From a virus (Duplodnaviria > Caudoviricetes): a DNA stretch of 30,821 bases. The translations under genes and the position numbers were made by a program. The DNA lies in IMG/VR virus record IMGVR_UViG_3300042399_001275, positions 1-30,821 of that record; one strand, given 5' to 3'. The notes below the pieces were generated by a model. That model searched no databases, was not told the DNA's origin, and worked only from the letters and a program-made list of their open reading frames with translations. Positions 5,430 through 27,270 of the stretch are shown in pieces. The first letter of the stretch is position 1, and each line of letters starts with the position of its first letter.

Positions 5430-6881
5430 CTACAACACCGCCGTCTGTTGAAGATAGTCTTGCCCCTGCTCGGGGGCGAACTTGCGAAGACCCATCGCGA
5501 GGGTCCTCAGTGCATCCGCACTGTGAGACGTCCAATCGTGCTTGGGCTTCTGGCGGAATACCTGCTGCCGTTCATCATACTCTCGGTGGTACAGAGCCAC
5601 GCGGTCAAGGCCATCCTGCGTTGAGCTTGCGTCAAAGAGGCAGCGCGGCAGAAGTGTTCGTACCGCTGCAATGCCGTCCTCCACGTTGGCGCGCGGAACA
5701 GTGACGCCACGAACTCCAAGGGCACGGAGGACAGAGGCGCGGGACTTGCCCGAACCAAGCTCGGTGACTTCGACGTCGTGCGGCCAGTAGTGTCGTCCAT
5801 AGCGATACCCCTTCTTCTCCAGTATATCGGCGTAGTGGTCTAGCGCGGCTCCAGCAGCTTCGTAATAGTCAATGACACGTACTTCGTTAGCCACGCATTG
5901 CACAAACCAGATTGCGGTGCAATCGTCGAAACCCAAGTCCCATCCAGTGTGGACTGGCAGGAGAGGATTGTAGGGCACAGCCCGAATACGGTCACGGTCT
6001 TTAAGCTCGGCCAGTTGCTTGGCGTAGATGGCTCCCTTGACGGCGGCGTCCCAGCTACATTCGTACTCCTGCTCGTAGGCGTCGTCATCGTTCATGTCCA
6101 TCTTGGCCAGGCGTAGCTCCTCGGGATTGAGGACGCCGGTCTGACTGGCCTTCCAAAGTTCCGCGGCCCAGTCACTACGATACACCAACTCGTCGCCCGC
6201 CGCACTGTCGATCTCGCCGCCACCCATCTTCGCGCCCAAGCCCTGCGCCCACAACTCCGCGCGGCGGTGCATGTGGTGGGCGTGGTTGCGCCCGAACGGG
6301 GTCGTCATAAAGATCGCCCACTGGTTCGGGTCGAGGCGATTGTCGAAGCCGTTACGGTTTACGTCCGACAGCATTGGGCGGACCTGCTGCGTCCACACGT
6401 GCGGCGGTATCTGCGCCCACTCGTCGAACACTACACCGTCCAGGTACATGCCTCTCAAACGCTGCTTGGGTGTATCTGTTCCGTAGAGGGCAATCTGAGC
6501 ACGCCCACCAAGGCGGGTTGGCAATTCCACCGTGAGCTTGCTCTCCATCTTTTCCGCCGTAGGGATACGATCGGCGAAGTCCTTCAAGTATGTCCAGGCA
6601 ATGTTGCGGGCCATATCGTAGGTCGGGGCCAGGTAGGCATACCGCCCGTTGGGGAACGGACACTCGATCGCTTTCTCGCCCAGGGCGTTCACGGCCAGGA
6701 CGGACTTCCCGAAGCGGCGATGCACCACCCACGAGTTAAAGCGCTTCATGCGCTCGTACATCTGGCCCTGCAAGGGGCGCGGGATGAAGCGCGTAAGCTC
6801 CCTCACGTCCTCGGGCAGGTCTACGATGCGGTTGTTCTGCGTCGCCTTGACGATCGCGGCGACCTTGGCAATGAGGCTCAA
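5430..6881 (-). CDS. terL: Terminase large subunit
   Basis: Walker A HRRFGKS, LRG, Walker B VVFDEW, coupling motif TTP, YEQEYEC, RNase H-like GWDLG and C-terminal HSADA. Confidence 0.95.
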   Translation of the reverse strand: MSLIAKVAAIVKATQNNRIVDLPEDVRELTRFIPRPLQGQMYERMKRFNSWVVHRRFGKSVLAVNALGEKAIECPFPNGRYAYLAPTYDMARNIAWTYLKDFADRIPTAEKMESKLTVELPTRLGGRAQIALYGTDTPKQRLRGMYLDGVVFDEWAQIPPHVWTQQVRPMLSDVNRNGFDNRLDPNQWAIFMTTPFGRNHAHHMHRRAELWAQGLGAKMGGGEIDSAAGDELVYRSDWAAELWKASQTGVLNPEELRLAKMDMNDDDAYEQEYECSWDAAVKGAIYAKQLAELKDRDRIRAVPYNPLLPVHTGWDLGFDDCTAIWFVQCVANEVRVIDYYEAAGAALDHYADILEKKGYRYGRHYWPHDVEVTELGSGKSRASVLRALGVRGVTVPRANVEDGIAAVRTLLPRCLFDASSTQDGLDRVALYHREYDERQQVFRQKPKHDWTSHSADALRTLAMGLRKFAPEQGQDYLQQTAVL

Positions 6882-15399: not shown

Positions 15400-15897
15400 A
15401 TGGAACAACGTAAGCACACGAACCCGGACGGCTCTGTCGTCACGATCTATGTTGGCGAGCGCGCCACGATTGGCGACGAGGCCAGGATTGGCGAGTGGGC
15501 CATTATTGGCGAGTGGGCCATTATTGGCGAGGGGGCCAGGATTGGCGAGGGGGCCAGGATTGGCGAGGAGGCCAGGATTGGCGAGTGGGCCAGGATTGGC
15601 GAGTGGGCCAGGATTGGCGAGTGGGCCAGGATTGGCGAGTGGGCCAGGATTGGCGAGGGGGCCATTATTGGCGACGAGGCCATTATTGGCGACGGGGCCA
15701 TTATTGGCGAGGGGGCCAGACGCCATGCGGTACGTTCGGACGGACATGTGTTTACTGTAGGCACCTTGGATGGTGTTCCTACGGTGTGGGCGGGCTGTCG
15801 TGTGTTCAATGAGCAGGAGGCCCGCACACACTGGGGCGACCCGGGGCATCCGCATCGCGCCGAGACGCTGGCCATCCTCGATTTCCTGTTTCGCTAG
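15400..15897 (+). CDS. Hexapeptide-repeat (left-handed beta-helix) protein
   Basis: Start moved to ATG 15400 (GGAGG RBS). 15 x IG[ED]xAx repeats, then C-terminal RSDG..F...AGCR.F...EA..HW. Confidence 0.85.
   Translation: MEQRKHTNPDGSVVTIYVGERATIGDEARIGEWAIIGEWAIIGEGARIGEGARIGEEARIGEWARIGEWARIGEWARIGEWARIGEGAIIGDEAIIGDGAIIGEGARRHAVRSDGHVFTVGTLDGVPTVWAGCRVFNEQEARTHWGDPGHPHRAETLAILDFLFR
15451..15720 (+). repeat. Coding tandem repeat, 15 x 18 bp
   Basis: Consensus ATTGGCGAG(TGG/GGG/GAG)GCC(AGG/ATT), with four identical consecutive units. Confidence 0.95.
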
Positions 15898-16088: not shown

Positions 16089-17704
16089 AACTCACGCTCA
16101 ACGACGACGTCTACCTGTGGGGCGGGCGCGAAGCTGAAGTCGAGACACTGGCCAAGGATGCTGGTCTAACCCTCTCGACCACGGCTTCGCGCTCGCGCGG
16201 GCACAACGTCTACTTTACACCCGAGCCTCACGCGGTTCTGCATCTGTGGAACCACGCGGACGAGAAGGCCAAGGCGGCGCTGCAGCCGCTTCGTACCGAG
16301 TGGGAGCGTTCCAACCTGAACGAGGCCCCACCGGGCTTCAGCGTCCCGGTGCCAGAGTTCTGCGAACTTATGCCATTTCAGATTGCAGGCGTGCATTATG
16401 CAAAAGACCGAGCTAACTGCCTTATTGGGGACGCACCGGGTCTTGGTAAGACGATCCAAGCCATCGCCCTGGCTAATCTGCGAGGATGCAAAAGGGTCCT
16501 TGTGGTTTGTCCAGCAAACGTCCGCCCCCAGTGGGCACGCCAGATTAAAATTTGGTCTACGCTGCCGCGCGTCGTCGTCTATCCGGTGTTCAAGTCTTCA
16601 GATGGGGTACACCCGACCGCGAACTACGTCATCACGAGCTTCGAAGTAGCCCGTGACGGACTATGGGACACGCTACGCTCCTACAACTGGGACCTGTTGG
16701 TGATCGATGAAGGACATTATCTCAAGACCCCTGACGCCGCGAGAACACGCGCGCTTTTTGGTGCTAGCAAGCAGAGTAAATGCCGCTATGCTGGAACTGG
16801 CGGCATTTCTGAACGAGCCGAGCAGATCGTTGCCCTCACTGGAACTCCTCTGCCCAACCGACCCCGCGAATGCTATACGCTGGCAAATGCACTGGACCCC
16901 TCGTCAGTAGACTGGATGAACTTCAACTCGTTCAAGGACCGCTTCAATCCCGGTGGCCGGGACATGGACAGTGGGGCGACGTGGGAGTACACCGCACGCC
17001 TGCCCGAGTTGAACGCCCGCCTGCGCTGTAACTTCATGGTGCGCAGGCTGAAGGAGGACGTGCTGAAGGACCTTCCGGCCAAACGGTACGAAATCGTCCC
17101 GGTGGAGTTGACGGGTAAGATTGCGATGGCCCTGCACGCCGAGAAGATGCTGGACTTCGACGAAGAAGAAATGCTGCGCCGATCAGGAGGCAAAATTGAC
17201 GGAGCAATCTCTACAGTGCGTCGCCAGATGGGAGAAGCAATGGCGTCTGCCGTTCTTGAACACCTGCTTACGCTTCTCGACGGCGGGGTCGAAAAGCTCG
17301 TCGTATTCGCGCATCACCACTCTGTCCTGGAAGTCCTCCAAAAAGGTATGGCGCGACATGGTTGTCTTAGAGTGGATGGTGGGACCTCCGCAAGAGGGAA
17401 GAACCAAGCGGTCGAGAAGTTTAAGTTTGACCCTCGGCTGAAGGTGTTTCTCGGCCAGATGCAGTCGATCGCCACAGGCACGGACGGTTTGCAGGACGTT
17501 GCGACTCACTGCGTACTGGCCGAGGCGTCATGGGTGCACGGCGACAATGAGCAGGCAGTCGATCGACTGCATCGCATGGGGCAGAAAGGTTCGGTCCTGG
17601 CGCAGCTTATGGTCGCACCGGGCTCGATCTCGGAGCGCATCCTGGGGCGTAGCATTTCCAAGGGGCGCACAGTGCAGAAGGTTTTGGATGGAGCGCCAGT
17701 CTAA
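16085..17704 (+). CDS. SNF2-family helicase
   Basis: LMPFQ, DAPGLGKT, LVVCP, DEGH, LTGTP.PNRP, MVRRLK, VVFAHH, QAVDRLHRMGQ. Confidence 0.95.
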   Translation: MKLTLNDDVYLWGGREAEVETLAKDAGLTLSTTASRSRGHNVYFTPEPHAVLHLWNHADEKAKAALQPLRTEWERSNLNEAPPGFSVPVPEFCELMPFQIAGVHYAKDRANCLIGDAPGLGKTIQAIALANLRGCKRVLVVCPANVRPQWARQIKIWSTLPRVVVYPVFKSSDGVHPTANYVITSFEVARDGLWDTLRSYNWDLLVIDEGHYLKTPDAARTRALFGASKQSKCRYAGTGGISERAEQIVALTGTPLPNRPRECYTLANALDPSSVDWMNFNSFKDRFNPGGRDMDSGATWEYTARLPELNARLRCNFMVRRLKEDVLKDLPAKRYEIVPVELTGKIAMALHAEKMLDFDEEEMLRRSGGKIDGAISTVRRQMGEAMASAVLEHLLTLLDGGVEKLVVFAHHHSVLEVLQKGMARHGCLRVDGGTSARGKNQAVEKFKFDPRLKVFLGQMQSIATGTDGLQDVATHCVLAEASWVHGDNEQAVDRLHRMGQKGSVLAQLMVAPGSISERILGRSISKGRTVQKVLDGAPV

Positions 17705-17892: not shown

Positions 17893-17922
17893 TTGACAGC
17901 CTACCCGTAAATGCCCGATAAT
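17893..17922 (+). promoter_or_regulatory. Sigma70-type promoter
   Basis: TTGACA-18 nt-GATAAT. Confidence 0.65.
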
Positions 17923-18545: not shown

Positions 18546-19310
18546 ATGCCGACCCTGGCCGAGACGAACAAGAACCCGCTCAATCTCCGCCCTTTGCCGG
18601 GCGGGGAGAAGTGGCAGGGCCAGACCGGGATCAGCACGAACCCGGTCACGGGCAAGTTCTGCGTGTTCAAGGACAACGAACACGGCGTCCGCGCCGCGGT
18701 CATCAACATGCGTTCCTACGTCAAGTTCTCAGGGGTCAAGACCCTGAAGGATGTGATCTACCGTTGGGCACCCCCTCCTCCCGGCGGCGAGATCATTGGG
18801 CAGGCCGGTTCGGCGGTCGGCGGGGTGGACATGAACCACACCGCGGCTTACCTCCAGTCTGTGTGCCGCCAGACCGGCCTGCCCGCCGACTTCGACGTCA
18901 CCGCGCTGGTGTCGTCCAATAGCTCGCCGTACTTCAAGGGCAAGATCGTCTCGATCGTCCGGGCCATGAACGTGGTCGAGGCGGGCAAGTCCACGATCAC
19001 GCTCCTGGAGGCGCAGGCGGGCGTCAACATGGCTCTGGGCGTGCCGGAAGGCTACACTCGGCAGGACGACGGCAACATCATCCGTGAGGACATGAAGCAG
19101 TCGGAAACCCTGAAGATCAACACGCAGGGCCAGGTGGCCAACGTCGCGGCCACGGGTACGGCGGCGGTGACGGCCTTCTCCGCGATTAGCGATTGGAGGA
19201 TCGCCGCGATCGTGGCCGGGGTTATCCTGATCGCTGGCGCAGCCACGGCCATCTACTTCTGGCGTCTGCGAAAGGACCGCAAGATGATGCACGAGAACGG
19301 CATTGCCTAG
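18546..19310 (+). CDS. Lysozyme-like protein (putative endolysin) with a C-terminal transmembrane segment
   Basis: NPLNLR, F..F....HGVRA, T....I.RWAP and NHT.AY...V motifs. C-terminal IAAIVAGVILIAGAATAIYFWR. Lies upstream of the spanins. Confidence 0.7.
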   Translation: MPTLAETNKNPLNLRPLPGGEKWQGQTGISTNPVTGKFCVFKDNEHGVRAAVINMRSYVKFSGVKTLKDVIYRWAPPPPGGEIIGQAGSAVGGVDMNHTAAYLQSVCRQTGLPADFDVTALVSSNSSPYFKGKIVSIVRAMNVVEAGKSTITLLEAQAGVNMALGVPEGYTRQDDGNIIREDMKQSETLKINTQGQVANVAATGTAAVTAFSAISDWRIAAIVAGVILIAGAATAIYFWRLRKDRKMMHENGIA

Positions 19311-19467
19311 CAAGCGCGAGGTGATCCCCGACGCAAGCCGGGCTGACTTCTCTTTCGTGGTTCCGGGCATGGATGGCCTGGAACTGAAGATGCCCTACGC
19401 CAAATGGGAGGAGTTCCATGCGGCGCTGGGCAACGAACTGGCCAAGCGCATGAGGCTGGAAGAATGA
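19303..19467 (+). CDS. Small hypothetical protein (54 aa)
   Basis: Read by hand from TTG: PSKREVIPDASRADFSFVVPGMDGLELKMPYAKWEEFHAALGNELAKRMRLEE. ATGA coupling to the next gene. Confidence 0.5.
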   Translation: MPSKREVIPDASRADFSFVVPGMDGLELKMPYAKWEEFHAALGNELAKRMRLEE

Positions 19468-19805
19468 AGTGGTGGGTCCTCGCCGCCGCGGTCATCCTGT
19501 GGGCGTCTGTTTTCATGGTCGCCCCGGCCCATGCGCACGATCAGTACAAGGACTGGAAAGCATGGGACGGAGGCTCGTGCTGCTCCGAGCGGGTTGAACA
19601 CCCGAACGGCCATGTGACGGGTGACTGCCGCCCGGTGCGTGCAACACAGGACATGGACGGCAACTGGATCGCCTACGAACGAGGGAAAGAATACCGTATC
19701 CCGCCACAGGCCATCCGCCCCATCCAGTCCCCGGACGGGCGCAGCCACCTGTGTGAAATGCACGGCCATATCTTCTGTTTCGTTCCTGGAGAGGTGCGCT
19801 CGTGA
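19464..19805 (+). CDS. Secreted Cys-rich protein
   Basis: Start at ATG 19464. Signal peptide ending AHA, then SCCS...DCRPV...SPDGRSHLC...IFCFVP. Confidence 0.75.
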   Translation: MKWWVLAAAVILWASVFMVAPAHAHDQYKDWKAWDGGSCCSERVEHPNGHVTGDCRPVRATQDMDGNWIAYERGKEYRIPPQAIRPIQSPDGRSHLCEMHGHIFCFVPGEVRS

Positions 19806-20050
19806 CCTGGTTCCTGACCCTGTGGCCGAAGATAAAGTTGTGGGCGATCGGCGCGGGTATTGCGCTGGTGTTCGTCGGCATACTAATATGGAGGGTGTTC
19901 GACGCTGGGCGTAACGAGGAGAAGATCAAGCAGGTTGAAGCCGTGTTGACCAACGTGCGCCGCGCCGCAGAGGCCCGCGCACAGGAGAGAGGGAAGCCTA
20001 CCAATGCTGAAGATGACGAATTTAACCGTGATCGCTGGGGTCCTCGCTAG
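19802..20050 (+). CDS. Putative i-spanin (Rz-like)
   Basis: N-terminal TM (WAIGAGIALVFVGILIW) and a helical periplasmic part, overlapped at the 3' end by a lipoprotein ORF. Confidence 0.7.
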   Translation: MTWFLTLWPKIKLWAIGAGIALVFVGILIWRVFDAGRNEEKIKQVEAVLTNVRRAAEARAQERGKPTNAEDDEFNRDRWGPR

Positions 20051-20183
20051 CTGCACCCCCGTCCCGATCGATACCTTCTGCACCAGTTACATTCCGGTCA
20101 GTTACTCGGCGTCACGTGACACGCCCGAGACGGTGCGCCAGGTCCAGGAGAACAACGCGGTGTGGAAGAAGCTATGCAAGTAG
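20004..20183 (+). CDS. Putative o-spanin (Rz1-like lipoprotein)
   Basis: Read by hand: MLKMTNLTVIAGVLASCTPVPIDTFC...ENNAVWKKLCK (59 aa). Lipobox LASC; +1 overlap with the i-spanin. Confidence 0.75.
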   Translation: MLKMTNLTVIAGVLASCTPVPIDTFCTSYIPVSYSASRDTPETVRQVQENNAVWKKLCK

Positions 20184-21340: not shown

Positions 21341-21489
21341 TGGACATGCAAAAGCTAATTCACGCTGTGGATGAAGCCGCGTATCTTCTGTCAAGGGACC
21401 CATACCCCTGTTCACAAGACGCGGCGCGAAACCTGCGTGCCGCCCTGGCCGAAATGCTGCAGCAAGAAGTCCGCAAGCACGGTACTTGA
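21340..21489 (+). CDS. Small hypothetical protein (49 aa)
   Basis: Read by hand: MDMQKLIHAVDEAAYLLSRDPYPCSQDAARNLRAALAEMLQQEVRKHGT. TGATG coupling. Confidence 0.55.
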   Translation: MDMQKLIHAVDEAAYLLSRDPYPCSQDAARNLRAALAEMLQQEVRKHGT

Positions 21490-21515
21490 CCATTGTAAGT
21501 GTAGCGTGGCATAAT
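21486..21515 (+). promoter_or_regulatory. Sigma70-type promoter for the SSB gene
   Basis: TTGACC-18 nt-CATAAT. Confidence 0.6.
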
Positions 21516-22266: not shown

Positions 22267-22293
22267 GCCCGGTGAAAGTCCGGGCACTTTTTT
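22267..22293 (+). terminator. Rho-independent terminator (last hairpin of a structured spacer)
   Basis: GCCCGG-TGAAAGT-CCGGGC followed by ACTTTTTT. Confidence 0.65.
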
Positions 22294-22693: not shown

Positions 22694-24677
22694 GAGCTAC
22701 AGCGAGGCCGACCTCAAGAAGACGGGGGCCTACAAGTATTCGGAGCATCTCAGCACTGAAGTCTTGTGCTTGGCATACGCCTTCAATGACGAGGAGCCGA
22801 TCCTGTGGCACCCCGGTCCCGGCGCTACACACCCCGCGGGACTTCTTCAGGCTATCAGAGCGGGTGCGGTGGTCGACGCCCACAACGTCGGCTTTGAGCG
22901 CGCTATATGGGAGAACGTCTGCGTTAAGCGCATGGGCTGGCCCGAGATCGAGGCCCACCAGTACGACTGCACGATGGCTCGTGCGGCCAGTAGGGCGCTG
23001 CCTCTTGGGCTGGAGCAATGCGCCGCGGCCCTCGGGCTGGACGTGCGCAAGGACAAGCGCGGCAAGCAGCTAATCAACCTCCTGTGCAAGCCGCAGAAGC
23101 CCAAGAAGAAAGACCCGCGCACCCGCATCCAGGACCCGGAACTACTGGCCGAACTGTACGACTACTGCAAGCAGGACGTGCGTGTCGAGCAGCGTATTCG
23201 CAGGGAGTTGGGCGCGCTGCCCGCCCCCGAGCGGGGGGTGTTCCTGCTGAATGAGAAGATGAACTCGCGCGGCATTACGATCGACGTAGAGAGCGTGCAC
23301 AACGCCATCGCGATCGTGAAGGAAGTCGAGAAGGAACTGACCGCGGAGCTTGTCGAAATCACGGGCGGCAGGATAGAGACGGCCAACCAGGTGGCCGAGA
23401 TACTGGACTTCGTTCAATGGAAAGTGGATGGAGGATTGGATGACCTCACGGCAGACACCGTCGCAGCGGCGATCCCTCGCGCGGAAGCAGGCTCCGTCGA
23501 GCGGCGTGTACTTGAGATCAGAGCGTCGCTTGCGAAGGCCAGTACGAAGAAACTGGCTGGACTACTTGCTGCTGTATGTGCGGATGGCCGTGTTCGTGGC
23601 CTCTCGCAGTATCATGGCGCTTTCACGGGCCGTAATGCGGGGCGTCTCGTCCAGCCGCTCAACCTACCGCGACCTAAGCTAGACGCCGACCCGGAGAGCC
23701 TGATCGAGGCCATCGCCACCCGCGATCCCGACTGGCTGCGTATGATGTACGGCGACCCCATGCAGTGCGTGGCCGACGCCCTGCGTCCCATGTTCATGGC
23801 GGGGGAGGGCCAGAACCTCTGCTCCGTCGACCTGGCGTCGATCGAAAGCGTGGGTATCGCGGCCATCGCAGGAGAGGAGAGCAAGCTTGAGGTATTCAGA
23901 CGAGGAGACGATCCATACTGCGTGTTTGCTAGCGCTGCTCTTGGTCGAACGATCACGAAGGCAAACGACCCGAAGGCGCGTCAGGACGTGGGTAAGGTGG
24001 GGGAGCTTGCTTTTGGTTTTGGCGGGGGTGTTGGGGCTTGGCGCAATTTTGACGACAGCGACAGGTTTGATGACGATGAAGTAAACGGCTTCAAGAACGC
24101 ATGGCGGCGCAAGCATCCCAACATCGCCCGCCCGCCGTGGGATCAGGAAGTGAAGGACGGTGAGGCCGGTGTGGGCCTGTGGTATGGCCTACAGGACGCA
24201 GCGCACGAGGCCGTGCTGCGCCCCGGCAAGCAGTGTGAGGCGTTCGGGGTGAAGTACCAGGTGCGGGGGAGGTGGCTCGTATGCACCCTGCCCTCCTCGC
24301 GCAACATCGTCTACTACGATCCTCTGCTCAAGGAGAAGATCAACCCCCACACGGATAGGTCCGAAGTGGTGCTGACTTACATGAGCCAGAAGTCTGGCCA
24401 CTGGCAGCGCATCGATACGTGGGGCGGGAAGCTGGCGCAGGGCGTGACGCAGGCGACGTGCCGCGATATCCTTGTGCATGGCCAGCGTCGGTGCGACCCT
24501 GAAATGCCCGTGCTGATGACTGTGTACGACGAGATCGTGACGGAGGTCGACGAGGAATTAGGTGTTGATCTCCCGGTCGAGCGCCTGATAGAATTTATGG
24601 TAGGCGATCTTCCAGCCTGGTGCGCCCATTGGCCCGTCAAGGCGGAAGGCTGGTGCGGCAAGAGGTACAGGAAATAA
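22671..24677 (+). CDS. polA: Family A DNA polymerase with a 3'-5' exonuclease domain
   Basis: Start moved to ATG 22671 (AAGGA). Exo motifs TIDFES, AHNVGFE and YCKQDV; TGR; motif A DLASIE; motif B RQ..GK..ELA.G.GGG; motif C YDEI. Confidence 0.93.
   Translation: MHVTIDFESYSEADLKKTGAYKYSEHLSTEVLCLAYAFNDEEPILWHPGPGATHPAGLLQAIRAGAVVDAHNVGFERAIWENVCVKRMGWPEIEAHQYDCTMARAASRALPLGLEQCAAALGLDVRKDKRGKQLINLLCKPQKPKKKDPRTRIQDPELLAELYDYCKQDVRVEQRIRRELGALPAPERGVFLLNEKMNSRGITIDVESVHNAIAIVKEVEKELTAELVEITGGRIETANQVAEILDFVQWKVDGGLDDLTADTVAAAIPRAEAGSVERRVLEIRASLAKASTKKLAGLLAAVCADGRVRGLSQYHGAFTGRNAGRLVQPLNLPRPKLDADPESLIEAIATRDPDWLRMMYGDPMQCVADALRPMFMAGEGQNLCSVDLASIESVGIAAIAGEESKLEVFRRGDDPYCVFASAALGRTITKANDPKARQDVGKVGELAFGFGGGVGAWRNFDDSDRFDDDEVNGFKNAWRRKHPNIARPPWDQEVKDGEAGVGLWYGLQDAAHEAVLRPGKQCEAFGVKYQVRGRWLVCTLPSSRNIVYYDPLLKEKINPHTDRSEVVLTYMSQKSGHWQRIDTWGGKLAQGVTQATCRDILVHGQRRCDPEMPVLMTVYDEIVTEVDEELGVDLPVERLIEFMVGDLPAWCAHWPVKAEGWCGKRYRK
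23887..24084 (+). CDS. Candidate overprinted +1-frame membrane protein inside polA
   Basis: GGAG 7 nt before TTG. 65 aa with hydrophobic ACLLALLLV and WGSLLLVLAGVLGLGAILTTA, matching a T-ending codon patch. Confidence 0.35.
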   Translation: MRYSDEETIHTACLLALLLVERSRRQTTRRRVRTWVRWGSLLLVLAGVLGLGAILTTATGLMTMK

Positions 24678-24988: not shown

Positions 24989-25179
24989 TGGCGAAGCTGG
25001 ATGGGGTTAGCAAGGAACTGTATCCGGGTGAAGCGGAGGGCGTGTTTCGCGACATGGAGCGTCGCCGCAGGGCCGCCGAGCGAACTAACTTCCGTATATC
25101 CAACGAGCGGTTCGTCGAGCGCAGGGTGGCCTCGGGCTACAAGATCGTCTACAAGAACGTCGGAGGTTTCCGTGGATAG
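24988..25179 (+). CDS. Hypothetical protein
   Basis: 63 aa, TAATG coupling, GAGG RBS. Confidence 0.6.
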   Translation: MAKLDGVSKELYPGEAEGVFRDMERRRRAAERTNFRISNERFVERRVASGYKIVYKNVGGFRG

Positions 25180-25321
25180 CTGGATCATCATAGGGCTGGC
25201 CCTCCTGTTCTGGCCGGTCATCGCCGCGTCGATCATCCTGACGGGGGTACTCGTCTGGTTCATGTGGCTGATCGCCCTCTCGACCATCAAGGGAATATGG
25301 GGTGACTTCTTTGGCCGTTAA
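25172..25321 (+). CDS. Small membrane protein (49 aa)
   Basis: GGAGG before GTG 25172. Long hydrophobic run WIIIGLALLFWPVIAASIILTGVLVWFMWLIAL. Confidence 0.65.
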   Translation: MDSWIIIGLALLFWPVIAASIILTGVLVWFMWLIALSTIKGIWGDFFGR

Positions 25322-26705
25322 GCGATACCTGTTCTCGTGCATGCAGAATGATACTCCTCTGCACCGCCCGACGTGGAACAACCTGCTGGCCTTGGCCAAG
25401 CACTACAACGCACAGATCGTTCTGTCGCGCTTCGTCTACGACATGGCGGCGCACAACGAGAGCGGCAAGCCACGTATGAAGTCTGCCCGCGAGGAGCGAT
25501 CGTGGGCGCGGGATGCCATGCCATATGTCCTCGACGAGCGCATGGTCGTGGCCAAGGGTCTGGAGTGGTGCGGCGAGTTGCAAATCCTGCCCACCGCGCG
25601 CCGCCCGATCAGCGGCTTCGAAAGCTACACCGGGCGCAACTCGTGCATCATCCCGCACCCCAAGGTGGCGCTGGAGAGTGTGGCGTCGGGCAAGCACGAA
25701 AGCACCAAGCTGATCTACACGACGGGCTGCGTCACTCGGAAGAACTATATCCAGAAGAAGGCGGGCCAGGTGGCGCAGTTCCACCACGCCTACGGCGCGC
25801 TCCTCGTCGAGGTGTCCGACCACGGGTGGTTCTGCCGCCAGGTCACGGCCACCGAGAACGGCACCATGTACGATCTGGACCTGCGGGTGAAGGACGGCAA
25901 GGTGACGACAGGCCACCGGGTCGAGGCGATCGTGTGGGGCGACGCCCACGTCCGCAAGGCCGACCCGGTCGTGGCCAAGTTGGCGTGGGCCAAGGGTGGT
26001 ATCCTGGATACCCTGCGCCCCAAGCGGCAGGTATTCCATGACCTGCTCGACTTCCATTCCCGGAACCACCACGAAATCGGCAACGGCAGGATGCGCTTCC
26101 GGCGCTACGTTGGCGACCCGGAGGATGACTGCGTCGGTGCGGAACTGGACGAGGTGGCTGTAGCACTGGCCAAGCGTAGCCGCTCCTGGTGCGAGAGCAT
26201 TGTTGTGGCCAGTAACCACGACGGCGCGCTGCTGCGTTGGCTGGACAGCGCGGACTACCGTAGCGACCCGCGCAACGCGCTCACGTTCCTCGATCTCCAG
26301 TCCGCGGTCTACCGGGCGGAGGCGGAAAAGGACCGTAGGTTTTCCGTGTTCGAACATGCTATGATGAAGCGCGGCATCAAGGGCGTGAACTTCCTGCGGG
26401 AGGACGACAGTTATGTCATTTGTAAGGACGCTAATGGTGGGATTGAGCTTGGTATGCACGGCCATCTTGGCGTCAATGGCGGGCGTGGTTCTATGCTTGG
26501 TTTCGCCCGAATGGGCCGCAAGTCATTTATCGGGCATGGCCACCGCGCTGGCATCGTTGATGGCGTTTGGATGGTTGGTACTTCTAGCCTCCTCGATCTT
26601 GGGTACAACTCGGGACCGGGGGCCTGGAGCCACACGTTCGGAGTAGCTTACCCGAACGGCAAGAGAGCAATGGCGACTATTTACGGAGGAGAGTGGCGTG
26701 GGTAG
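25302..26705 (+). CDS. T5 A1-like protein (metallophosphoesterase-fold nuclease)
   Basis: QNDT..H, ILPTA, YTTG.VT..NYIQKKAGQ.A.FHH.YGALLVEV, GD.H, HDLLDF..RNHH, SNHD, MHGH and GHGH. Matches the A1 family as recalled. Confidence 0.8.
   Translation: MTSLAVKRYLFSCMQNDTPLHRPTWNNLLALAKHYNAQIVLSRFVYDMAAHNESGKPRMKSAREERSWARDAMPYVLDERMVVAKGLEWCGELQILPTARRPISGFESYTGRNSCIIPHPKVALESVASGKHESTKLIYTTGCVTRKNYIQKKAGQVAQFHHAYGALLVEVSDHGWFCRQVTATENGTMYDLDLRVKDGKVTTGHRVEAIVWGDAHVRKADPVVAKLAWAKGGILDTLRPKRQVFHDLLDFHSRNHHEIGNGRMRFRRYVGDPEDDCVGAELDEVAVALAKRSRSWCESIVVASNHDGALLRWLDSADYRSDPRNALTFLDLQSAVYRAEAEKDRRFSVFEHAMMKRGIKGVNFLREDDSYVICKDANGGIELGMHGHLGVNGGRGSMLGFARMGRKSFIGHGHRAGIVDGVWMVGTSSLLDLGYNSGPGAWSHTFGVAYPNGKRAMATIYGGEWRG
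26413..26646 (+). CDS. Candidate overprinted +1-frame two-TM (holin-like) protein inside the A1-like gene
   Basis: GGAGG 9 nt before ATG. 77 aa with two hydrophobic segments and a charged C-tail; host-frame codons switch to T-ending over this span. Confidence 0.5.
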   Translation: MSFVRTLMVGLSLVCTAILASMAGVVLCLVSPEWAASHLSGMATALASLMAFGWLVLLASSILGTTRDRGPGATRSE

Positions 26706-27117
26706 ATGCAACGATTGTGGAGCGAAGGGCGGGCACTACAAGTGGTGTGGGGTGAAGCACAAGGAGGGCGACCCAATTGAGCCACTGGGCAGGAAGCCTG
26801 TGTGGCAGCAGCCTTCACGGGCTGGGAGCTACAACGTGATCTCGTCCCCGGCGCACTACGCCCGGTTCGCGATCCAGCCGATCGACTTCATCGAGGCCAA
26901 TGGCCTGGACTTCCTTCAGGCCAGTGTTCTGAAATACCTCGTGCGCTTCCCGTTCAAGAACGGCGTGGAAGACCTGCACAAGGCGCGTGACATGCTGAAC
27001 CGCCTGGTCGCGCGGGAAGAAGCGAAGCTAGTGCGGGACACGGGGCAGGAGGTTGGCGGTCAGCCAGCCGCCGAACACCCCGAAGGCCGCGCCGATCGCG
27101 GAGGCGGTGCCCAGTAG
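26698..27117 (+). CDS. DUF3310-family protein (T7 gp1.7-like nucleotide kinase family)
   Basis: SPAHY...IQPIDFI....LDF....VLKYL.R...KNGVEDL.KA, with an N-terminal CxxC...H...C. Confidence 0.85.
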   Translation: MGRCNDCGAKGGHYKWCGVKHKEGDPIEPLGRKPVWQQPSRAGSYNVISSPAHYARFAIQPIDFIEANGLDFLQASVLKYLVRFPFKNGVEDLHKARDMLNRLVAREEAKLVRDTGQEVGGQPAAEHPEGRADRGGGAQ

Positions 27118-27270
27118 CTTGGACCTGCTATGCTCCAGGGAAGACACACGCTTGGTAATATCCTTGTGGCTTTCCTGGAGCATACTCTTTATCTCGTGTA
27201 TGCTGTGTTCCAGCCCGTCTACTTTTCCCTCTACTCTCCCCAGCGCTCGGTCTAATTCGTGGCCCTGCAT
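27028..27270 (-). CDS. Small coiled-coil protein with a C-terminal TM segment
   Basis: LGRVEGKVDGL...RVSSLE, then LLGTASAIGAAFGVFGGWL. TAATG coupling to the tail fibre gene. Confidence 0.7.
   Translation of the reverse strand: MQGHELDRALGRVEGKVDGLEHSIHEIKSMLQESHKDITKRVSSLEHSRSKLLGTASAIGAAFGVFGGWLTANLLPRVPH

Follow-up and report, generated by a model that had tools for sequence, protein, structure and literature searches.

A probable membrane-protein gene overprinted on the A1-like gene of lake podovirus-like phages

The A1-like gene of this phage raises the question of whether a single piece of DNA specifies two proteins, an enzyme in the main frame and a small hydrophobic protein in the +1 frame near its 3' end, and, if so, whether the second of these belongs to the lysis machinery. 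The window (the whole stretch of DNA analysed, 30,821 nucleotides) has relatives with genomes of 40.9-46.6 kb and is itself a 30.8-kb piece of such a genome. Its best metagenome matches are lake samples, and we describe the clade as lake podovirus-like phages of roughly 41-47 kb.

The host gene (25302..26705, plus strand) encodes a T5 A1-like protein of 467 residues which matches phrog_1745 over its full length (E 6e-164), and 1132 phage records match it, labelled "A1-like" or "DNA transfer protein". The protein is predicted to be a calcineurin-like metallophosphoesterase. Its AF2 model has a pLDDT of 86, the top Foldseek matches of this model are phosphoesterases, Vps29, nuclease MPE and PolD (best E 0.006, none at E<=0.001), and the motifs GDxH, SNH, HG and HxH are invariant; a PDB sequence search with the protein gave chance matches only. 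A calcineurin-like fold has been described for T5 A1 and its orthologues (PMC7824862), which the host protein resembles both in family and in its fold matches. T5 A1 has been reported to be membrane-associated (10.1101/866236) and to drive the degradation of host DNA in vivo (10.64898/2026.04.02.716235), and by analogy with this degradation the protein encoded here may also be a nuclease. Just upstream of it, at 25001-25321 on the same strand, an ORF with strongly hydrophobic last 45 residues is found in the close group of the window only.

The nested ORF (26413..26646, plus strand) encodes 77 residues with two predicted membrane helices, in exactly the sequence first quoted for it. It overlies host codons 371-448, including the invariant His386, His412 and His414, which from the known motifs of the family we take to be metal ligands. 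This ORF has its own start codon and ribosome-binding site in the alternative frame: the Shine-Dalgarno sequence GGAGG (26399..26403) lies 9 nt 5' of the ATG, precisely as the earlier note had placed it. It is the strongest such site among the off-frame ATGs of the gene in eight of the ten ORF-bearing sequences, being weaker in L008 and L009, and it is absent at this position from the outgroup L028. A TAAGGA followed by a second in-frame ATG (Met8; 26423..26436) could provide a dual start; this ATG occurs in four of the five lineages described below and its Shine-Dalgarno sequence in only two. Weak mRNA folding at the nested start is uninformative because L028 has the same. Read-through into the downstream DUF3310 gene, which is in the same frame, was rejected since stops intervene in most relatives.

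A search for related loci found 19, of which 18 were aligned (the partial L017 was excluded). Twelve are close (83-100% identity) and represent five lineages, namely the window group, L008, L009, L011 and L012, the last four having 76-79% DNA identity to the window; two of the twelve do not differ from the window at all. It had been suggested that the conservation of the frame be examined across A1 homologues, and in all 12 close loci, hence in all five lineages, the ATG and the TAG stand in the same columns with no intervening stop. The six distant aligned loci have no ATG there and five of them contain stops. The start requires a TAT codon in the host gene and the stop (TAG, 26644..26646) a rare GTA or ATA codon followed by G; upstream in the gene none of the 12 shared Tyr columns is TAT in all five lineages and none of the 35 Val/Ile columns is xTA in all five. 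Among the differences listed for metagenome contigs, few fall within 26413-26614 and none affects the start or the stop. When drift was simulated from an ORF-bearing ancestor, no more than 2 of 4,000 runs ended with start, frame and stop kept in every one of the five lineages, a result obtained with a star tree which overstates the case somewhat because the real tree is not a star. Within the window group the nested products share 90-97% identity, and with those of the other lineages they share 42-53%, yet all are hydrophobic; between lineages the A1 protein is 83-90% and the endolysin 73-80% identical.

The hydrophobic character of the nested frame originates in the third positions of the host codons, where T becomes the middle base of hydrophobic nested codons while A1 is left nearly unchanged. 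In predicted transmembrane segment 1, 60 of the 125 middle bases across the five lineages are T. The counts given in the earlier note proved exact, with 29 of 63 host codons from 26412 ending in T and 2 in A, against 2 of 37 ending in T at 25710-25820, although 38 of 370 upstream codons is the fairer baseline. The highest count per 63-codon window in 15 other genes of the window is 22, and, once amino acids are controlled for, 8.7 T-ending codons are expected and none of 20,000 shuffles reaches 29. That the skew is specific to T was only half right: the excess of T stands, but a low number of A-ending codons is nothing unusual for this gene, which has 16 in 370 upstream (z -0.3 in the window lineage). 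Their depletion is only mild (5 where 19.5 would be expected in the transmembrane spans; z -0.3 to -2.0 across lineages). Host codon usage is therefore distorted over the overlap, and the step is at the nested ATG, with T3 (T-ending codon) z values of 0.0-1.7 in codons 341-370 and 2.1-9.8 in codons 371-400. A weaker additional T3 bump was observed at codons 271-340 (25950-26320) in L008, L009, L011 and L012, of which three have a long open +1 frame there; the frame is broken in the window, and no conserved ORF was found in these codons.

The strength of this signal was evaluated against a null in which the A1 protein is fixed and the codons are redrawn from the upstream usage of each gene (20,000 draws). 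Mean hydropathy of residues 1-70 is 1.22, compared with 0.29±0.21 in the synonymous shuffles, and none of the 20,000 reaches the observed value, which is also the case in L008, L009 and L012. In L011 the P value is 6.5e-4, the T3 excess alone not being significant in that lineage (17 vs 12.5, P 0.10). A start, an open frame and a stop occur jointly in 0.1-0.9% of draws per lineage. Across 744 windows in 21 host genes of six genomes, a mean z of 5 is reached only by polymerase and A1 windows. When alternative ORFs with a common start and stop were screened for blindly, three emerged (in A1, helicase and terminase) where 300 controls gave 0.91 (P 0.05); shared start and stop alone are thus only marginal at the genome-wide level. 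Nevertheless, for none of the 273 chance-conserved control ORFs does every genome show a transmembrane segment, and mean hydropathy among them peaks at 0.20, compared with 1.09 for the A1-nested ORF. The combination of conserved start and stop with hydropathy is decisive against chance, and against chance only, because the T skew is removed by design from the control, which thus leaves room for another cause of the skew.

Such another cause is conceivable, and the synonymous sites bear on it. Six close strains form 15 pairs, which are not independent, and in 14 of these the overlap shows only 0-3 synonymous differences in 58 sites, compared with 14-22% upstream; it ranks third lowest of 179 windows in synonymous difference. 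Between lineages the divergence is equal or higher in the overlap (0.41-0.63 vs 0.27-0.49 upstream); host synonymous constraint is thus seen among close strains and absent between lineages. The A1 protein is nearly invariant over the overlap (8 of 78 columns vary). The strains are mosaics; comparison of the window with L010 places a breakpoint close to codon 434 (6/347 upstream and 6/22 in the tail). A T-rich patch acquired at a conserved motif by recombination from a T3-rich donor, or a DNA or RNA element, could be proposed in place of a gene, the hydrophobic frame being a by-product and the low diversity of close strains a recent sweep. The mosaicism would fit such an origin, as would the T3 bump of codons 271-340 with its lack of a conserved ORF, the weak folding shared with L028, and the fact that Gly-rich host sequence yields Ala, Val and Gly in the +1 frame by default. 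Against it, about half of the synonymous sites differ between lineages and yet start, stop, frame and hydropathy persist, and the T3 step is located at the ATG. Conserved RNA structure was rejected, the covariation term being +2.36 (not covarying), and an Rfam search of the region gave no match. Among the remaining frames, +2 and two of those on the reverse strand are interrupted; the one reverse frame that stays open does so in L028 as well. We consider it improbable that there is no gene here; the sequence comparisons make a real overprinted gene likely, probably translated from the A1 message by means of its own Shine-Dalgarno sequence.

The nested ORF is younger than its host gene, as judged from the sequences of related A1 genes. 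The outgroup L028 has 77-78% A1 identity (83-86% over the overlap) and the same neighbouring genes, and at the nested locus it has TAC-ATC in place of the ATG, three stops and a T3 count of 5/63. It is placed, with weak branch support (83/58), as sister to the ORF clade and is the single close outgroup, a search for further ones having found none. Of 110 distinct A1 sequences, 73 have enough upstream codons, comprising eight clade members with z values of 4.9-6.8 and 65 others (L028 included) with a mean of -0.46 and a maximum of 2.8. The signal of a nested membrane ORF is absent from these 65 more distant genes, among which the A1 of T5 itself is not represented, and their +1 frame is open in 17 of 65 compared with 13.5 expected. 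The simplest reading of these sequences is that the nested ORF was gained, by overprinting, when this clade originated. In three distant A1 genes (L109, L115 and L137) the +1 frame of this region is open and mildly hydrophobic, with z of about 2 (2.3 for L109 and 2.1 for L115), and these are possibly independent cases or chance.

Two hydrophobic segments had been described in the nested protein, and both hydropathy and AF2 predict two helices. Predicted segment 1 (residues 7-30; 26431..26502) has a 19-residue Kyte-Doolittle maximum (KD19) of 2.43 over residues 12-30 and corresponds to an AF2 helix at 2-30; predicted segment 2 (residues 41-63, extending to about 70 in other lineages; 26533..26601) has a KD19 of 2.09 over residues 45-63 and corresponds to an AF2 helix at 32-68. 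The AF2 model, built with 10 sequences, has a pLDDT of 69 and a pTM of 0.35, and a third short hydrophobic segment is possible in the L009 and L012 proteins. The charged tail that had also been described is weak: there are some basic residues at the end, but the net charge of the whole protein is only +1 in the window. Basic residues are found at position 5 and at 67-75, and in three of the five lineages Lys or Arg occurs in the predicted outer loop. In the other four lineages the hydrophobic stretch continues to about residue 70, leaving a tail of about seven residues with only 2-3 Arg. Host codons force the basic residue Lys/Arg5 and six of the invariant nested residues, C15, C28, W34, G53, W54 and G72. 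Family searches gave no Pfam holin at E<=1 for any of 10 members, a PHROG holin for one of 10 at E 0.13 only, a best Atlas score of 0.86 (below 0.9), no viral fold match with Foldseek, and no exclusion family, Imm included, at E<=1. Homologues outside the clade were not found, with none among four candidates in the protein search and all 10 viral loci belonging to the same clade. The protein search returned no existing record of the nested protein, and gene callers can consequently miss a whole layer of this kind.

The idea that this protein is a holin was prompted by the lysis cassette (18546-20183), which is surrounded by replication genes and separate from the structural arm. It was correctly noted that the cassette has no obvious holin, as no holin-like gene stands beside the endolysin in six genomes. 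The endolysin (18546..19310, plus strand) is of the Enc34/M4Lys type (PDB 7Q47, E 2e-5 over residues 8-84; phrog_873) and ends in a membrane anchor and a basic tail, with a C-terminal KD19 of 2.1-2.5 in six genomes and a weak first helix of two. Relatives of this endolysin with 56-77% identity occur on contigs of 30-44 kb. It is followed on the same strand by a predicted i-spanin (19802-20050) with an N-terminal transmembrane segment and a predicted o-spanin (20004-20183) matching the Rz-like spanins of phrog_1275 (E 1.7e-6). The slot directly upstream of the endolysin is occupied by a soluble 210-residue protein, not a holin, in five of six genomes, the G002 record ending there. A signal-peptide-like ORF (19404-19805) comes and goes between strains, and at the ends of G003 the cassette is present in two versions. 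The possibility that the endolysin tail represents a stand-alone holin family was rejected, only two matches being obtained among 16 candidates, both of them close fragments. Sigma-70-like promoters were found on the plus strand before the lysis block (17893-17922), the SSB gene (21486-21515) and the resolvase-A1 block (24565-24594), and eight such promoters were found compared with 2.8 expected. A promoter-like sequence (TCGCCA-17-AATAAT) occurs four times without change on the minus strand at 15502-15710, close to where the two arms diverge; the copies form two pairs 18 nt apart.

The nested ORF is the only ORF of 40-200 residues with two hydrophobic segments in all six genomes, the polymerase-nested ORF described below having them in five. 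Class II holins have two helices (PMC9636201), but the assignment of the nested protein to this class is so far not supported. It has no holin family match and is situated 6.2 kb downstream of the cassette, past a terminator-like site at 22267, and for these two reasons we do not file it as a class II holin. Moreover, since L028 has no nested ORF, lysis timing probably predates it, and the ORF would have joined the control of lysis later, if at all. An older candidate for the holin role is an 80-residue protein with a coiled coil and a C-terminal hydrophobic segment (27028..27270, minus strand), which stands alone after a tail gene in five of five related genomes and in L028. The L028 copy matches XhlA at E 0.009 and the holins of phrog_689 at E 0.064, both too weak to pass the significance threshold. 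In a distant phage whose endolysin belongs to the type found here (43%; L252:3370-5342), a coiled-coil/transmembrane gene, the endolysin, a small gene and two spanin-like genes stand in a row; the pre-endolysin gene there is similar in architecture to 27028-27270, with no detectable homology between the two. The polymerase-nested ORF (23887-24084) is an equal holin candidate.

Overprinted membrane genes are textbook cases in tiny phages and as nested spanins. The lipoprotein Rz1 of lambda, a dsDNA phage, is encoded by an envelope gene nested in that of its partner Rz, whereas the ORF at 26413-26646 has no lipobox and is inside an unrelated enzyme. T4 Imm is a small two-helix inner-membrane exclusion protein that blocks DNA entry at the inner membrane; the nested protein differs in having no match to the Imm family at E<=1. 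The closest parallel in origin is gene E of phiX174 within D, in which T at host third positions gives T at second positions and with it a hydrophobic membrane segment (PMC8227390), and by analogy the nested ORF may have been born by the same mechanism, the two sharing a same-strand overlap and a T3 shift that makes a membrane segment hydrophobic. They differ in that phiX174 is a small ssDNA phage whose E inhibits wall synthesis, while the present phage is a dsDNA phage of roughly 41-47 kb with endolysin and spanins, in which the T was gained locally (10% to 46%) in a GC-rich host gene and two helices are predicted. The pinholin S21 of phage 21, like class II holins, is similar to the nested protein in size, in its two predicted helices and short basic end and in being accompanied by a membrane-tethered endolysin. 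Here, by contrast, there is no sequence or fold match, the gene is outside the cassette and within another gene, the tail is barely charged, the dual start has its Shine-Dalgarno sequence in only two of five lineages, and the endolysin is C-terminally anchored and not of the SAR type. The cassettes of Enc34 and of the Chi-like phage BSPM4 also contain a 7Q47-type endolysin with a membrane domain at its C-terminus, and two spanin-like genes behind it (PMC8943055); they have a putative holin directly upstream, and the cassette of the present phage sits among replication genes. According to the reports on these phages, Enc34-type endolysins have been proposed, as a speculation, to be timed by pinholins (PMC8943055), and M4Lys lyses without a holin when overexpressed (PMC7143992). 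A literature search turned up no earlier description of one gene lying within an A1 gene, most subscription papers and supplements being outside its scope.

A real gene with a pinholin-type role, as timer or tuner of lysis, is the single most likely function, tentative as this choice is. The 77-residue product would be translated from the A1 message by its own Shine-Dalgarno sequence and would accumulate in the inner membrane as a two-helix protein with both ends inside, where it might oligomerise and collapse the proton motive force. This collapse could release or activate the membrane-anchored Enc34-type endolysin, or tune that step. Provided that the gene is real, we hold such a course of events to be possible, with slightly more confidence than the role overall. 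Nearly as probable as the pinholin-type role is that of an accessory effector facing the host, most likely in superinfection exclusion, where it would keep DNA from entering at the inner membrane as T4 Imm does, or as a membrane counter-defence, with lysis left to the self-anchored endolysin and the help of 27028-27270. Such a role would agree with the clade-specific gain of the ORF, with a protein near-invariant within a lineage and far more divergent between lineages than A1 or the endolysin, and with a second, hypervariable two-segment ORF nested in the polymerase. In addition, T5 has been reported to produce a toxic two-transmembrane pre-early protein, Gp013, from the same pre-early set as A1 (10.64898/2026.04.02.716235). 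On the other side, no exclusion family was matched, and the ORF is present in every ORF-clade genome examined (6/6), unlike many accessory genes.

An unlikely reading is that the nested protein tethers A1 to the membrane or regulates it, the two being produced together from one message. The reported membrane association of T5 A1 (10.1101/866236) and its part in host DNA degradation would fit such a partner, and the overlap guarantees co-inheritance, but A1 is almost invariant over the region in which the nested protein diverges to 42-53%, there is almost no soluble surface for binding, and 65 more distant A1 genes, that of L028 among them, do without the ORF. Equivalent ORFs in the polymerase also suggest that its position reflects opportunity and not partnership. 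Still less likely is a joint action of the A1-nested and polymerase-nested proteins as pore former and inhibitor, or a function of the former as antiholin for another membrane lysis factor. Both proteins have 62-77 residues and two hydrophobic segments and are encoded on the same strand in the same clade, and the putative holin of BSPM4 is reported not to lyse alone and might restrain M4Lys (PMC7143992). However, the two ORFs evolve very differently among close strains, and the first segment of the polymerase-nested copy in the window is weak.

This second ORF (23887..24084, plus strand) is likewise in the +1 frame, here of the DNA polymerase gene, and encodes 65 residues from a TTG start with AGGAG 7 nt upstream. 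It is found in nine of nine clade sequences with z values of 2.7-7.9 (40 of 51 sequences passed the filter), compared with -1.8 to 3.2 in 31 distant polymerases. All nine have the same stop, except that in G004 the start is an ATG two codons later and the end is two codons earlier. Among close strains it is hypervariable, with synonymous differences of 0.54-0.60 vs 0.23-0.27. Elsewhere in the polymerase gene (23428-23682, plus strand) several lineages show elevated T3 and a hydrophobic run in a +1 frame whose start is not common to all. Further nested +1 frames are suggested by the sequences of the SNF2 helicase and large terminase genes. In the helicase gene (16383-16649, plus strand) an 88-residue ORF, with its ATG at 16398 and a weak Shine-Dalgarno sequence, has a shared start and stop in six of six genomes; synonymous differences are suppressed in it even between distant lineages (0.07-0.12 vs 0.34-0.50), and it may be a gene or a cis element. 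Another ORF of 67-70 residues (16707-16910, plus strand) starts in the DEGH motif of the same enzyme and is constrained in four genomes and divergent in two. The terminase ORF (5507-5800, minus strand) encodes 97 residues that are not hydrophobic, its ATG has a purine-rich Shine-Dalgarno sequence in six of six genomes, and one pair shows 5/97 synonymous differences there against 116/353. That the genes of the core enzymes, namely A1, DNA polymerase, SNF2 helicase and large terminase, carry several real nested genes in their +1 frames we judge about as likely as not. It is rather doubtful that such a second gene layer includes, in the A1- and polymerase-nested membrane proteins, a newly born lysis clock replacing the cassette holin; if this were true, a holin system would have been born de novo within the active-site coding sequence of a dsDNA phage.

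The sequence evidence speaks well for the A1-nested ORF being a gene, and the further nested frames offer the lead with the greatest promise. A nested membrane gene has apparently been born recently within the codons of the conserved catalytic motifs of an enzyme in a GC-rich dsDNA phage, and an outgroup that has no such ORF dates its gain, which makes this a testable case of de novo gene birth. If the nested protein does time lysis, it would answer how Enc34-type endolysins are controlled in phages whose cassette has no holin.
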